Shown here piece after piece: positions 33,869-56,776 of a DNA stretch of 64,000 nt. Source of the DNA: Formivibrio citricus (GTDB taxonomy: Bacteria > Pseudomonadota > Gammaproteobacteria > Burkholderiales > Chitinibacteraceae); the NCBI RefSeq assembly GCF_900115065.1, contig NZ_FOVE01000010.1:1-64000 (forward strand). Direction: 5' to 3'. The notes beneath the pieces were generated by a model. The model did not search any database. It was not told the origin of the DNA and was given only the letters and a program-made list of their open reading frames with translations. Within the stretch, counting starts at the first letter, position 1. Each line of letters begins with the position of its first letter. A program made the translations under genes and the position numbers.

Positions 33869-34713
33869 ATGTCACTGGCCATCGTCCAATCCCGCGCCCT
33901 GGAAGGCCTGTCCGCCCTGCCGGTAATGGTGGAAGTCCATCTCGCCAACGGTTTGCCCGCCTGCAATATCGTCGGCCTGCCCGAAGCCGAAGTGCGCGAA
34001 GCACGTGACCGGGTTCGTGCGGCCTTGGCCGTTTCCGGCTTCGAATTTCCCAACCGCCGCATCACCGTCAATCTGGCGCCGGCCGATCTGCCCAAGTCTG
34101 CCGGGCATTTCGATCTGCCGATCGCCATCGGCATCCTTGCCGCGAGCGGGCAACTCCCCGCCGACCGGCTCAAGGAATACGAATTTGCCGGCGAACTCGG
34201 GTTGACCGGCGAGCTGCGCGGCTTCCGCGGCGCGCTGGCGCTATCCATTGCCGCCGGCATGGCCAAGCGCACGCTCATCATCAGCGAAGCCAGCGCTGCA
34301 GAGGCCGCGCTGATTGCCGAAACCCCGGTACTGGCAGCCCCGCACCTGCTGGCGGTCTGCCGCCACCTGCTGGGCGTTGATCCGCTGCCGACCGGCCAAG
34401 CGCCCCCCTCCCCCGAAACCCGGCACTATCCCGACCTCGGCGAGGTCAAGGGTCAGCAGCAGGCCAAGCGCGCGCTGGAAATTGCCGCCGCGGGCGGACA
34501 TTCGCTGTTGATGATCGGCCCGCCCGGCACCGGCAAATCCATGCTGGCGCAACGCCTGCCGGGCCTGCTGCCGCCGATGACCGCCGAAGAGGCACTGGAA
34601 GCGGCAACGGTACAATCGATCGGCAACAAGGGGCTGGATGCCCGCGCGTACGGTATCCGCAATTTCAGGGCACCCCATCACACTTCATCCGGCGTCGCCC
34701 TGGTCGGCGGCGG
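33869..34713 (+). pseudogene. comM: comM (YifB/ComM Mg-chelatase-like ATPase) 5' fragment, interrupted by a transposon.
   Basis: MSLAIVQSRALEGLSALPVMVEVHLANGLPACNIVGLPEAEVREARDRV...[13 protein letters not shown] is then followed by unrelated sequence. Conserved ComM continues directly at 56117. Confidence 0.9.
34709..34713. repeat. Target-site duplication GGCGG (left copy).
   Basis: The same 5-mer directly abuts the other transposon end at 56117-56121. Confidence 0.6.
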
Positions 34714-34763
34714 TGTAAAACCGAACGCTATTTGCGAACGGACACGTTTTGCAGGAGAATTAA

Positions 34764-35483
34764 ATGCGACTGATGTCATGGATCCTCAACGTGGGTACTC
34801 CTGAAGCAGTACGAAAAATCCCCATCAACACGGTCAGTCTGACCGGGGAAGTGCTCGGCCAAGAGTTTGAGTCTTCTCTGGAGCGCGACCTGATCATGCT
34901 TATGGCATGGGACGCAGACATCGACTGGTTTCAGGTTCAGCCGGTCAAAATCAGATACACCAACCCAAACGGCAATCGCCGTAGTTATACGCCAGACCTG
35001 CTGGTTCACTTTCTTCGAAATCCCAAGCCCGAAACAGATCGTAAACCTATCCTTTGCGAAGTGAAATATCGGGAAGAATTGGCTAGGAACTGGAAAGAGC
35101 TCAAGCCAAAGTTCAAAGCGGCCAAGGCGTATGCCAATGAGCAGGGCTGGGACTTTCAAATTTTCACAGAAGACCGCATCAGAACGCCTTACTTCCGCAA
35201 TATTCAGTTTCTCTGGTCTTACCGGTATAGCCCTCTGTACGAAACACACCATGAGCGCTTGCTTCAAGCATTAAGCGAAATGGAAGAGGCCAGCATCAAC
35301 AGGTTGCTTGACCATTGTTATGGCTCCCGTGATCGCGTGGGGCGCGGTGAGGGCATTTGGACATTGTGGTGTATGGTCGCGAGGCGGGAAATCGTCTGCG
35401 ATCTCCATGTACCTCTTGCGATGGACTGCAAGATTCAGCGGAATCCGAAGAATTCAATTTGGGTACCGAGTGATCAGGAGTAG
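34764..35483 (+). CDS. tnsA: TnsA-like endonuclease.
   Basis: LGQEFESSLERDLIMLMAWDADIDWFQVQPVKIRY...RSYTPDLLVHF...ILCEVKYREEL matches the TnsA pattern (E..LE.D...L.WD...EQP..I.Y...YTPDFLV...EVK). The first ATG lies inside the terminal repeat. An alternative ATG is at 34773. Confidence 0.8.
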   Translation: MRLMSWILNVGTPEAVRKIPINTVSLTGEVLGQEFESSLERDLIMLMAWDADIDWFQVQPVKIRYTNPNGNRRSYTPDLLVHFLRNPKPETDRKPILCEVKYREELARNWKELKPKFKAAKAYANEQGWDFQIFTEDRIRTPYFRNIQFLWSYRYSPLYETHHERLLQALSEMEEASINRLLDHCYGSRDRVGRGEGIWTLWCMVARREIVCDLHVPLAMDCKIQRNPKNSIWVPSDQE

Positions 35484-35485
35484 AG

Positions 35486-54862: not shown

Positions 54863-55795
54863 TTGATGGAAAACTTTGAAGCCAAGGGACTACTGTCCGT
54901 CGAGGTGAAGGCTTCCCCGATAGTAGCGGGCACCCCTGCGACAGTGAGTTTGATAATTCGAAATCCGTTTTCGGAACAGGTTGTCATCGAGTCAATTCAA
55001 GCGCCATCGTCAGCCCCATTGCTTCCGTCGCAAGTTGGAGAGGACGAAAAGTCGTCTCACGGAATGGACAAGAAACCGGGTTTTTTTGAAAGTTTTGTTT
55101 CAGCCTTCGTCATGTTTAAGGTAAAGGAAATTAGCGTCGGCCCACTTACTGCGGAGTTTCCGGCACCACGAGGGCGGCATTTCCACATAAACATGGAGCC
55201 ACAGTCAAAGCTGACTGTGAAAACCCCGTTTGGTCCTAATGACAACGTACATATCAATAATGCCGAGGGCGCAGAGGTCGTGTTCGACACTCCTGACGCA
55301 AAAGCCGATCCCGGAGACAGTAAAGAGAGAGTAATTCCGCCTCATCAGGAAGACTTGGCTTCGTTTGAGTTGAAGACTGCTCATTGGCTATTGGTGAAAC
55401 CAAAAGTGCTCGACTTATATGCGCTCATAAGATTCAGGGTTGGTGATGAACCGCGCAGCCAAGTTGTTCCAGTCACGGTATCTGTTCAACCGCCCGTGAA
55501 GTCGATTGTCCTCGGCACAGTTTCCGGTGGCATTCTCGGATGGCTCGCCCGGCAGTTGAATAAAGGCATTCTTTCCTCTGAGTTTTCAGCAGCCGCGTCA
55601 ATTGTTAGCGTGCTTGGAATCATCGTAATGGCCATGATTCTTGCCATCGTTTTGTCTCGGCAGGAATCGTCGAAAGGGTTCGTTACGCTTGAAGACTTCT
55701 ACGGCGCTTTTGTTGTTGGAGCTATTCTCGGATATACAGGAACGCAATATTTCGAAGCGTCAATTAAGGCTGCAGTAGGTAGTTCAGGTGTATAA
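54863..55795 (+). CDS. Hypothetical protein with C-terminal TM helices.
   Basis: 310-aa ORF. The C-terminal region IVSVLGIIVMAMILAIVL...FVVGAILGY is hydrophobic. Confidence 0.35.
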   Translation: MMENFEAKGLLSVEVKASPIVAGTPATVSLIIRNPFSEQVVIESIQAPSSAPLLPSQVGEDEKSSHGMDKKPGFFESFVSAFVMFKVKEISVGPLTAEFPAPRGRHFHINMEPQSKLTVKTPFGPNDNVHINNAEGAEVVFDTPDAKADPGDSKERVIPPHQEDLASFELKTAHWLLVKPKVLDLYALIRFRVGDEPRSQVVPVTVSVQPPVKSIVLGTVSGGILGWLARQLNKGILSSEFSAAASIVSVLGIIVMAMILAIVLSRQESSKGFVTLEDFYGAFVVGAILGYTGTQYFEASIKAAVGSSGV

Positions 55796-56116
55796 CATGG
55801 AAGCTCCGCTGATAAGGCCGGCTCCGCGCCGGTTAACTCTACTACAAGGGCTTCCCCGTCGAATGCAATAGTTTCGACGTTCTTTTCGGTTTGAGTTTTG
55901 CGGCATCGCCGGCCTGATTGGCTGAGAAGGAGAAGGACTGCGAAACTACACCGGTCATTGCGGGCTCATGGCTCATACCTGATAAGGGCGCGCACGGCGC
56001 CACTTATCTTATATACATGTCGGTTTCTAGATGGCTAAATAGTGGTGTCTAGTCGCAAATACTGTTCCTCAGTCGCATTTATCGTTCTTGATTCGCAAAT
56101 AATTTTCCTTCTAACA

Positions 56117-56121
56117 GGCGG
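56117..56121. repeat. Target-site duplication GGCGG (right copy).
   Basis: Matches 34709-34713. Confidence 0.6.
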
Positions 56122-56776
56122 CGCCAACCCGCAACCGGGGGAGATTTCCCTCGCACATCACGGCGTATTGTTCCTCGATGAGCTGCCGGAGTTCGACCGC
56201 AAGGTGCTGGAAGTTCTGCGCGAACCGCTCGAATCCGGGCGCATCCTGATTTCCCGCGCCGCCCGGCAGGCAGAGTTCCCCGCGCGCTTCCAGCTCGTCG
56301 CCGCCATGAACCCCTGCCCTTGCGGCTATCTGGGGCACCCACGGCATGCCTGCCGCTGCACGCCCGATCAGGTCAGCAAATACCGCGGAAAAATTTCCGG
56401 CCCGCTGCTCGACCGCATCGACATGATCGTCGAAGTCCCTGTGCTGCCGGAATCGGCGCTGCTCTCCGCCGCCGATGGCGAATCGAGTGCGACGGTGCGC
56501 GAGCGCGTCGCTCAAGCCCGCGAACGGCAGCTAACCCGCCAGGGGCACCCCAACAACGCCCTGCAACCCAAGGCCATCGACATGCATTGCGTTCCGGACA
56601 ATGCCGGCCTCTCCCTGTTGAGCGCCGCCATCAACAAACTGGGGCTGTCGGCGCGCGCCAGCCACCGCATCCTGCGCATGGCACGCACGATTGCCGATCT
56701 GGACAATGCCTCTGCCATACAGTCAAGACACATTGCCGAGGCCATCCAGTACCGGCGAACATTGTCCGGTTCGTAA
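56117..56776 (+). pseudogene. comM: comM 3' fragment.
   Basis: [50 protein letters not shown]...FQLVAAMNPCPCG... is collinear with ComM/YifB residues from about 300 onward. It is in the same reading frame as the 5' fragment once the element is removed. Confidence 0.9.

Follow-up and report, generated by a model that had tools for sequence, protein, structure and literature searches.

The window analysed here is a 64,000-nucleotide stretch of the chromosome of Formivibrio citricus (order Neisseriales), in which the comM gene is split by a 21,403-bp element at positions 34714-56116. By its genes and ends, this element is an intact-looking Tn7-like cut-and-paste transposon of a Tn6022-related branch. 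As a whole, it is probably best explained as a Tn6022-related element that is inserted at the comM site of its own family, that is directed to this site by TniQ without the TnsF protein of Tn6022, and that has been integrated in a minor orientation; this account is held with good confidence. Among the Tn7-like transposons it belongs to a comM-specific group related to Tn6022; its selector architecture is different, and no feature of it is categorically new. An earlier note on this DNA, made from the sequence alone, had described a 21.4-kb Tn7-like transposon in comM with a 5-bp GGCGG duplication, and the boundaries and the duplication are read directly as it had stated. It overlooked the orientation of the element, which is opposite to that of its family and of a near-identical sibling.

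Ends of the element and the interrupted comM gene

The two parts of comM and the ends of the element are arranged as follows.

33869-34713, + strand: comM 5' fragment, codons 1-281 and two nucleotides of Gly282; Pfam ChlI (1.7e-41) and Mg_chelatase profile positions 1-93
34709-34713: target-site duplication, left copy GGCGG, read from the sequence
34714-34771, + strand: tnsA-proximal end, consisting of the terminal TGT and a spaced pair of 22-bp TnsB-type sites
56051-56116, − strand: tnsA-distal end, three abutting 22-bp TnsB-type sites with 20-bp spacing and terminal ACA
56117-56121: target-site duplication, right copy GGCGG, read from the sequence
56122-56776, + strand: comM 3' fragment, from the last base of Gly282 to the stop codon; Walker B (VLFLDE) and Pfam Mg_chelatase_C

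The outermost bases of the element are TGT on the left and ACA on the right. When the 64 kb are scored with a weight matrix derived from its own 22-mers, exactly five sites exceed 20 bits, all of them directed inward, and the next best site scores 17 bits. Two of these sites are located at the tnsA end (34718-34739, 20.7 bits; 34750-34771, 23.2 bits), where they are 32 bp apart and the second one overlaps the tnsA start codon, and three are located at the far end (56051-56072, 24.8 bits; 56071-56092, 24.1 bits; 56091-56112, 26.5 bits). The TnsB-site-like repeats previously noticed within the TGT...ACA ends are thereby counted as two plus three 22-bp sites. The far-end array is also detected, independently of the weight matrix, as a 3 x 20-bp array by Tandem Repeats Finder, and its sites are recovered as repeat family D1. 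The G+C content is ~0.50 inside the element versus ~0.60 in the flanks, and both junctions recur in an independent assembly (Logan, SRR4136416; loci L088 and L089). The element therefore has the TGT...ACA termini, the several asymmetric 22-bp TnsB-type repeats and the 5-bp target duplication by which it resembles Tn7. The packed triple site forms the tnsA-distal end in both of the orientation classes described below. In Tn7, the packed site array is located at the tnsA-proximal right end.

The Mg_chelatase profile is divided between the two comM fragments, with positions 93-204 falling on the 3' fragment (Pfam, 6.8e-53). When the two halves are rejoined, they form a 1,500-nucleotide open reading frame (ORF) encoding 499 aa, and the resulting ComM protein is 86-88% identical, over 100% of its length, to uninterrupted 499-aa ComM/YifB homologues. 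These homologues have the identical protein sequence across the insertion junction, and the empty comM site is confirmed in this way at the protein level. It had been suggested as a check that related genomes be searched for an uninterrupted comM, and these homologues indeed read straight through the junction. That comM might end naturally near LVGGG is excluded, because the homologues continue past the junction and both pieces belong to one Mg_chelatase domain. The reading of comM as normal up to 34713 and the prediction that excision recreates a ComM protein of about 499 aa are likewise borne out. The second half resumes after the element, as was also claimed, but from position 56122 and not from 56117, which is the first base of the second GGCGG. 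The significance given to an "in-frame" insertion, with 21408 bp divisible by three, is not retained, because excision of the element together with one copy of the duplication restores comM whatever the length of the element. The reading frame of the 5' comM part itself continues for 30 codons beyond the junction and is closed by a stop at 34804.

Transposition proteins and selection of the comM site

The genes at the tnsA end of the element are listed below.

34764-35483, + strand: tnsA, 239 aa; Pfam Tn7_TnsA-like_N (3.7e-20) and TnsA_C (1.2e-09)
35486-37384, + strand: tnsB, 632 aa, DDE transposase; Pfam Mu-transpos_C, HTH and rve
37381-38289, + strand: tnsC of the short TniB type, ~300 aa; Pfam TniB (2.5e-60)
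38237-39805, + strand: tniQ, 522 aa, presumed comM target selector; Pfam TniQ (1.8e-30); GenBank SFN48205.1
39392-39805, + strand: TniQ C-terminal module, residues 386-522, a truncated and catalytically dead tyrosine-recombinase fragment
40135-40629, + strand: 164-aa ORF; no match in Pfam, NCBIfam or PADLOC

The comparison sequences are Tn7 from plasmid R721 and the Tn6022 backbone of AbaR4 from pA85-3. E40, D78 and K101 of TnsA align with E63, D114 and K132 of Tn7 TnsA, and D235, D320 and E356 of TnsB align with D273, D361 and E396 of Tn7 TnsB, while TnsC contains both a Walker A (NNGKT) and a Walker B (LLVDEV) motif. The element thus encodes a TnsA with the catalytic E-D-K residues, a TnsB with the DDE residues, an AAA+ regulator of the TnsC/TniB type and a selector of the TniQ/TnsD family. 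The Tn7-like set of TnsA, TnsB, TniB-type TnsC and TniQ named in the earlier note agrees with both the Pfam matches and the catalytic residues, and the betaproteobacterial-looking background that it mentioned fits the host, which is identified as F. citricus by exact matches of the TniQ protein and of the 542-aa protein described below. The identities to the Tn6022 proteins are 35.5% for TnsA, 35.7% over the full length for TnsB (E 2e-122), 33.7% for TnsC and 24% for TniQ, and the comparison with Tn7 gives only a partial TnsB match of 23%. By these alignments, the core proteins are much closer to those of Tn6022 than to those of Tn7. The element further resembles Tn7 in that a dedicated chromosomal site is apparently read by a TniQ-family protein and in that a second selector is probably present. 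It differs from Tn7, which inserts downstream of glmS, in that it is located inside comM and inactivates it, in that its TnsC is of the short TniB type, and in that only the zinc-finger region is common to its TniQ and Tn7 TnsD.

The likeness to Tn6022/AbaR extends to the heteromeric TnsA/TnsB transposase, the short TniB-type TnsC, the homologous TniQ core, the insertion with a 5-bp duplication at the comM Gly-Gly codons upstream of Walker B, and, on the opposite strand, a large gene of poor conservation that is possibly TnsE-like. However, protein identity is only 24-36% and the TnsB-site sequences differ. The insertion spot is at the second and third Gly codons of LVGGG, ~45 bp upstream of the Walker B codons, and the GGCGG duplication covers Gly281 and two bases of Gly282. 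The duplication of AjTn6022 is CCCGC and that in Acinetobacter baumannii is ACCGC. On the other strand these sequences are GCGGG and GCGGT, which are Gly-Gly codons. By this comparison of register, which is made through the duplication sequences alone, Tn6022 uses the same LVGGG spot to within ~1 bp.

Two reconstitution studies have reported that comM targeting by Tn6022 requires TnsF in addition to TniQ (PMC10293859, PMC11014353). According to these studies, TnsF is a protein of ~480-500 aa that has zinc fingers at its N-terminus, a pair of core-binding-like domains and an inactive, incomplete catalytic domain of the tyrosine-recombinase type; it binds a comM site that overlaps the Walker B codons, TniQ bridges it to TnsC, and Tn6022 also has a distant TnsE on the opposite strand (PMC10293859, PMC11014353). 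One TniQ-TnsF fusion has been reported. The earlier note had cited Tn6022/AbaR elements as a precedent for targeting by TniQ alone, and this precedent is incorrect. Its view that the insertion into comM is site-specific is supported by relatives inserted at the same Gly codons. It is therefore highly improbable that the element is simply an ordinary AbaR/Tn6022-type element with a known TniQ-only mode of targeting in a new host. The same gene is occupied at the same spot within ~1 bp by distantly related core proteins, as such an explanation would require, but TnsF is needed besides TniQ in the published reconstitutions, a TnsF homologue is not found in the window, TniQ is a protein of 522 aa with a recombinase fragment instead of 371 aa, and the orientation is reversed relative to the family.

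The search for TnsF in the window by tblastn with Tn6022 TnsF (pA85-3) gives only matches with E > 2. Nothing TnsF-like follows tniQ, the next ORF on the + strand being the one for 164 aa. A Cys-rich 447-aa ORF that follows a short TniQ in locus L069 was considered as a TnsF candidate and rejected, as it encodes a RES-domain protein. The architecture thus differs from that of Tn6022, in which a 371-aa TniQ is accompanied by TnsF, whereas the F. citricus TniQ has 522 aa and a recombinase fragment without TnsF. The TniQ core consists of residues 1 to ~385, and its relationship to Tn6022 TniQ is detected by hhalign over residues 25-338 with 99.7% probability (E 6e-26).

The nature of the remaining C-terminal part is revealed only by structure and by custom profiles, since Pfam and NCBIfam searches with the C-terminal half of TniQ give no match even at E <= 5. 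An AlphaFold model of residues 216-522 has a mean pLDDT of 77, with values of ~90 or above for the last ~120 residues, and matches the structures of XerD, Tn1549 Int, the archaeal XerC-like protein 4a8e, archaeal XerA and Cre. A TniQ-family profile matches Escherichia coli XerD with E 0.003 at XerD residues 130-227, a segment that makes up the first half of the catalytic domain. With a profile of residues 386-522, 130 proteins are detected among 1.84 billion representatives. The strong matches are TniQ proteins of ~500-540 aa that carry the module at their C-terminus. The weak tail consists of proteins of 300-400 aa, with Pfam Phage_integrase in eight of the ten sampled. The long-TniQ family comprises ~90 clusters at 50% identity (87 matches with E <= 1e-10, some of them fragments). 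These structure and sequence searches support the assignment of the C-terminal ~135 residues as a truncated tyrosine-recombinase fragment. The module is a dead remnant, because TniQ ends ahead of the HxxR, His and Tyr catalytic residues.

These features raise the question of whether the fused dead-recombinase fragment is equivalent to TnsF and reads or bends the comM site, the protein being in effect a TniQ-TnsF fusion. This explanation is possible but doubtful. The fragment has the fold and sequence of a tyrosine recombinase, TnsF, which has been found fused to TniQ once, is likewise an inactivated recombinase in which the catalytic domain is incomplete, and the insertion spot is the one used by Tn6022. 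However, profile comparisons of the TniQ C-terminus with Tn6022 TnsF detect no sequence similarity, and the fragment represents only the first half of the catalytic domain, without the zinc fingers and the tandem core-binding domains by which TnsF is proposed to bind DNA. In addition, about half of the comM-inserted relatives form a short-TniQ clade (~380 aa), in which the module is absent and the same comM spot is occupied. Because these short TniQ proteins are found in comM without the module, the fragment is not obviously needed for comM recognition. A conserved partner gene was searched for downstream of the short TniQ genes in comM, and none was found. Loci with a short TniQ at the same comM spot and without TnsF include L003, L030, L034, L118, L121 and L130, among others. 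Recognition of comM may therefore reside in the shared TniQ core, and the C-terminal module may be accessory, for example in DNA bending, TnsC contact or orientation.

TniQ is nevertheless the best-supported candidate for the comM selector by sequence, and we infer both this role and the activity of the element. In the proposed mechanism, TniQ would bind comM DNA beside the insertion point and recruit TnsC, which would activate TnsA and TnsB, so that the ends are joined 5 bp apart. TniQ would act without a separate TnsF, and either its core (residues 1 to ~385) would read the DNA or the fused dead-recombinase fragment would help to bind or bend it. The insertion would inactivate comM, the product of which has a published role in natural transformation (PMC10293859), and loss of ComM would plausibly lower natural transformation.

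It is improbable, though conceivable, that the element is an immobile relic that was mobilised in trans by a relative encoding the true selector, its own TniQ being uninvolved in comM recognition. Short-TniQ relatives without an obvious selector exist, and Faure et al. have suggested that some elements may recruit selectors in trans. However, all catalytic residues and both ends of the F. citricus element are intact, and the long-TniQ family is conserved over its ~90 clusters. Moreover, the element and its sibling have cores that are 96.7% identical, different cargo and opposite orientations, which point to recent independent insertions.

Two other groups of elements are comparable with the F. 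citricus element in part. Tsy of Zoogloea targets the same comM region with the involvement of a tyrosine-recombinase-derived protein, but it has active recombinases (YRec and TnsF) and an HTH protein without Tn7 genes, whereas the F. citricus element has TnsABC and no active recombinase; Pfam scans of the element detect no ORF of the Phage_integrase family. In the CRISPR-associated Tn7-like elements (I-F, I-B and V-K), TniQ is likewise an adaptor to TnsC, but the F. citricus element has neither cas genes nor a CRISPR array.

Orientation of the insertion

The loci of TniQ relatives were surveyed in GTDB genomes (80 loci) and JGI metagenomes (80 loci), with additional exact look-ups; the GTDB representatives matched by TniQ do not include the genome of the window itself. 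TniQ relatives are present at the same Gly-Gly-Gly codons of comM in ~50 other contigs. At 51 loci (~47 distinct), the comM 3' fragment, from residue ~281, adjoins the tnsA end in an antiparallel direction, and the junctions of this usual orientation read ...GCTGCCGCC/TGTAAA, where the slash marks the junction. Where both ends are visible, as in L001 with the duplication CCCCC, the duplication covers the same Gly codons. A search of the JGI metagenomes for the exact pattern of the tnsA end gives no match. In the window, in contrast, the tnsA end adjoins the comM 5' fragment, and the tns genes run in the same direction as comM, opposite to the usual arrangement. The comM 5' fragment adjoins the tnsA end, at the same GG/x position, in 11 loci that represent two to three independent events. 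Only one other lineage, that of Aquabacterium/Rubrivivax (L023, L025 and L091-L098), is reversed, again at the same GG/x position. A neighbour-joining tree built from the TniQ cores shows two origins of the reversed state, both within the long-TniQ clade.

The closest relative is the sibling locus L005 (Logan, SRR28513423), the TnsA protein of which is 100% identical to that of the window and the DNA of which is 96.7% identical over 4,999 bp. It has the same tnsA end, the same 69 bp of comM and the same GGCGG, yet it is inserted in the usual orientation. The homology between the two ends ~100 bp before the tniQ stop codon, and the cargo differs. Within 39700-39805 of the window, the two TniQ proteins differ mainly in their last ~35 residues, and the tail of the window TniQ resembles that of a more distant relative, P0003. 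This pattern of sequence identity points to a recombination event in the 3' end of tniQ, where core and cargo meet. The divergent last ~35 residues, which are the sole block differing between the window and its sibling, could influence orientation.

The presence of an oppositely oriented sibling with identical comM sequence, together with the strict orientation control of Tn6022, would be in keeping with a secondary origin of the reversed state, either by inversion of a usual insertion or by misassembly. Such an origin is very unlikely. Inversion through a shared terminal inverted repeat was considered and rejected, because the outer 15 bp, which are specific to each end, have not been exchanged between the ends in either the window or L005. 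The two copies of the duplication match perfectly, the flanks contain no inverted repeat, dyad symmetry around the duplication does not exceed background, and an independent assembler recovers both junctions with 4 kb or more of sequence on each side. The Aquabacterium/Rubrivivax lineage is, in addition, reversed at the same position.

The simplest reading of these results is that the choice of site and the choice of orientation are separable, and that the window represents an integration product in the minor orientation. CRISPR-associated relatives of Tn7 insert in both orientations at one fixed distance, with one orientation strongly favoured and the other accounting for a minority of a few percent. 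The F. citricus copy would similarly be a minor-orientation product at the correct site, formed without rearrangement. The account of a TniQ-directed insertion in the minor orientation is weakened by several points. In addition to the short-TniQ clade and its lack of a conserved partner gene, the reversed events number only two to three against ~47, L005 carries no more than 69 bp of comM, and Tn6022 has been reported to be under strict orientation control. In this last respect the F. citricus copy, which is reversed relative to its own family, differs from Tn6022 as reported. A more specific proposal is put forward tentatively, as less probable than the account as a whole: that comM targeting is independent of TnsF, with TniQ itself as the DNA reader and a domesticated half of a catalytic domain fused to it, and that orientation control is leaky or switchable, the element being inserted either way at the same 5 bp.

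Probable second selector, cargo and neighbouring genes

The part of the element beyond tniQ contains the following features.

40730-42358, − strand: probable tnsE-like gene for a second target selector, 542 aa when counted from M25; SAMN05660284_01592; the ORF extends to 42430
42388-55795: cargo region, ~14 ORFs (Pfam, PADLOC)
42388-42948, − strand: DEDDh exonuclease (PADLOC DEDDh, 7.4e-12)
43160-44455, + strand: HipA-like kinase (Pfam)
44471-45262, + strand: endonuclease I, secreted (Pfam)
48254-49675, − strand: DUF7830/DUF6035 protein (Pfam)
52154-52639, + strand: DUF723 protein (Pfam)
53021-53764, + strand: bSEFIR/TIR protein (PADLOC bSEFIR, 5.1e-81)

The 542-aa protein has no match in Pfam, NCBIfam or PADLOC, and a sequence search of the PDB is empty. 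Comparisons with Tn7 TnsE and with the 598-aa distal ORF of Tn6022 by hhalign, hmmsearch and blastp are negative, and tblastn against plasmids gives only unannotated partial matches. Its family comprises at least 741 proteins annotated as "hypothetical". Among the first 99 loci, tblastn with the window protein and three relatives locates this family downstream of tniQ in 36 distinct ones. By eye, its segment IVIPCWELIRFYF resembles the segment YHIPQLELARSLF of Tn7 TnsE, which is located at a similar position and which we take to be the beta-clamp-binding motif. It is somewhat more probable than otherwise that this minus-strand protein is a TnsE-like second selector, and it would then serve as an alternative selector for mobile or replicating DNA. 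Of the earlier statement that the element lacks both tnsE and cas genes, the second half holds, as no Cas protein or CRISPR array is found, but the absence of tnsE is doubtful in view of the probable TnsE-like gene at 40730-42358. In the Aquabacterium lineage (L091-L099; L091 7681-9450), the TnsE-like homologue directly follows tniQ on the same strand, and an IS66 insertion and tyrosine-recombinase genes follow it.

The cargo appears from its family matches to be a set of defence- or conflict-type genes, and the remainder includes membrane ORFs and several ORFs without a family match. Scans with Pfam, PADLOC and repeat finders detect in the element neither resistance genes nor cas genes nor a CRISPR array; the DEDDh exonuclease matches only a 'Cas-associated' model. 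The cargo is thus defence-like, whereas that of Tn6022/AbaR consists of resistance genes, in agreement with the earlier description of it as unlike that of AbaR. In L005, a four-gene block stands in place of the cargo of the window. This block, which is shared by L005 (5306-8852) and L007 (7479-10940), contains genes for a D12-class methyltransferase, an Ogg-HhH glycosylase-like protein, QueC and a PfkB/nucleoside deoxyribosyltransferase, and may be a 7-deazaguanine-type DNA-modification or defence module.

The comM gene is located directly upstream of parE (56849-58825, + strand), which is followed by a nucleoside deoxyribosyltransferase gene and then by parC, as seen from the window together with L088. 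The region 3' of parE is the attachment site of another Tn7-like group in Acinetobacter (PMC11014353). It is unoccupied in F. citricus. Genes for a type IV pilus and for the DUS-binding protein ComP are located just past the window in the host, as seen on L088.

Two loci in the first part of the window are also of note. An Rtc RNA-repair locus is located at 10350-16739, in which rtcR (10350-11951, − strand) is divergent from a tRNA-like gene at 12284-12358. This gene is detected as tRNA-Ile with the anticodon AAT by ARAGORN and by the Rfam tRNA model with 53 bits, and this anticodon is unusual for bacteria. It is followed by a SPFH/Band_7 gene, rtcB, a HEAT-like ORF and rtcA. The Salmonella rsr-yrlBA-rtcBA operon contains the Y-RNA/tRNA-like YrlA, which the tRNA-like RNA heading an RtcR-controlled operon recalls. 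The gene at 8273-9982 (+ strand) encodes a flagellin (Flagellin_N 7.5e-41, Flagellin_C 3.8e-21), the variable region of which is interrupted by a metallopeptidase-like sequence (Peptidase_M9 7.8e-06, Peptidase_MA_2 4.3e-04), so that the protein is classed as an 'enzymatic flagellin'.

For the host, the element is a 21-kb island of defence type, the insertion of which at the same time disrupts a competence gene. Unrelated mobile elements repeatedly use comM as a landing site, and such insertions reduce natural transformation. For the family, the comM targeting known from Tn7 relatives depends on TnsF, whereas the long-TniQ family reaches the same 5 bp without TnsF. The long-TniQ and short-TniQ sister clades provide a natural series for the questions of which protein surface reads comM and how domain capture contributes to the evolution of Tn7-type selectors. 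A natural pair that bears on what sets the orientation of insertion is provided by the window and the near-identical sibling inserted in the opposite direction, and orientation control is relevant to the integration tools engineered from Tn7 and from CRISPR-associated transposons (CAST).

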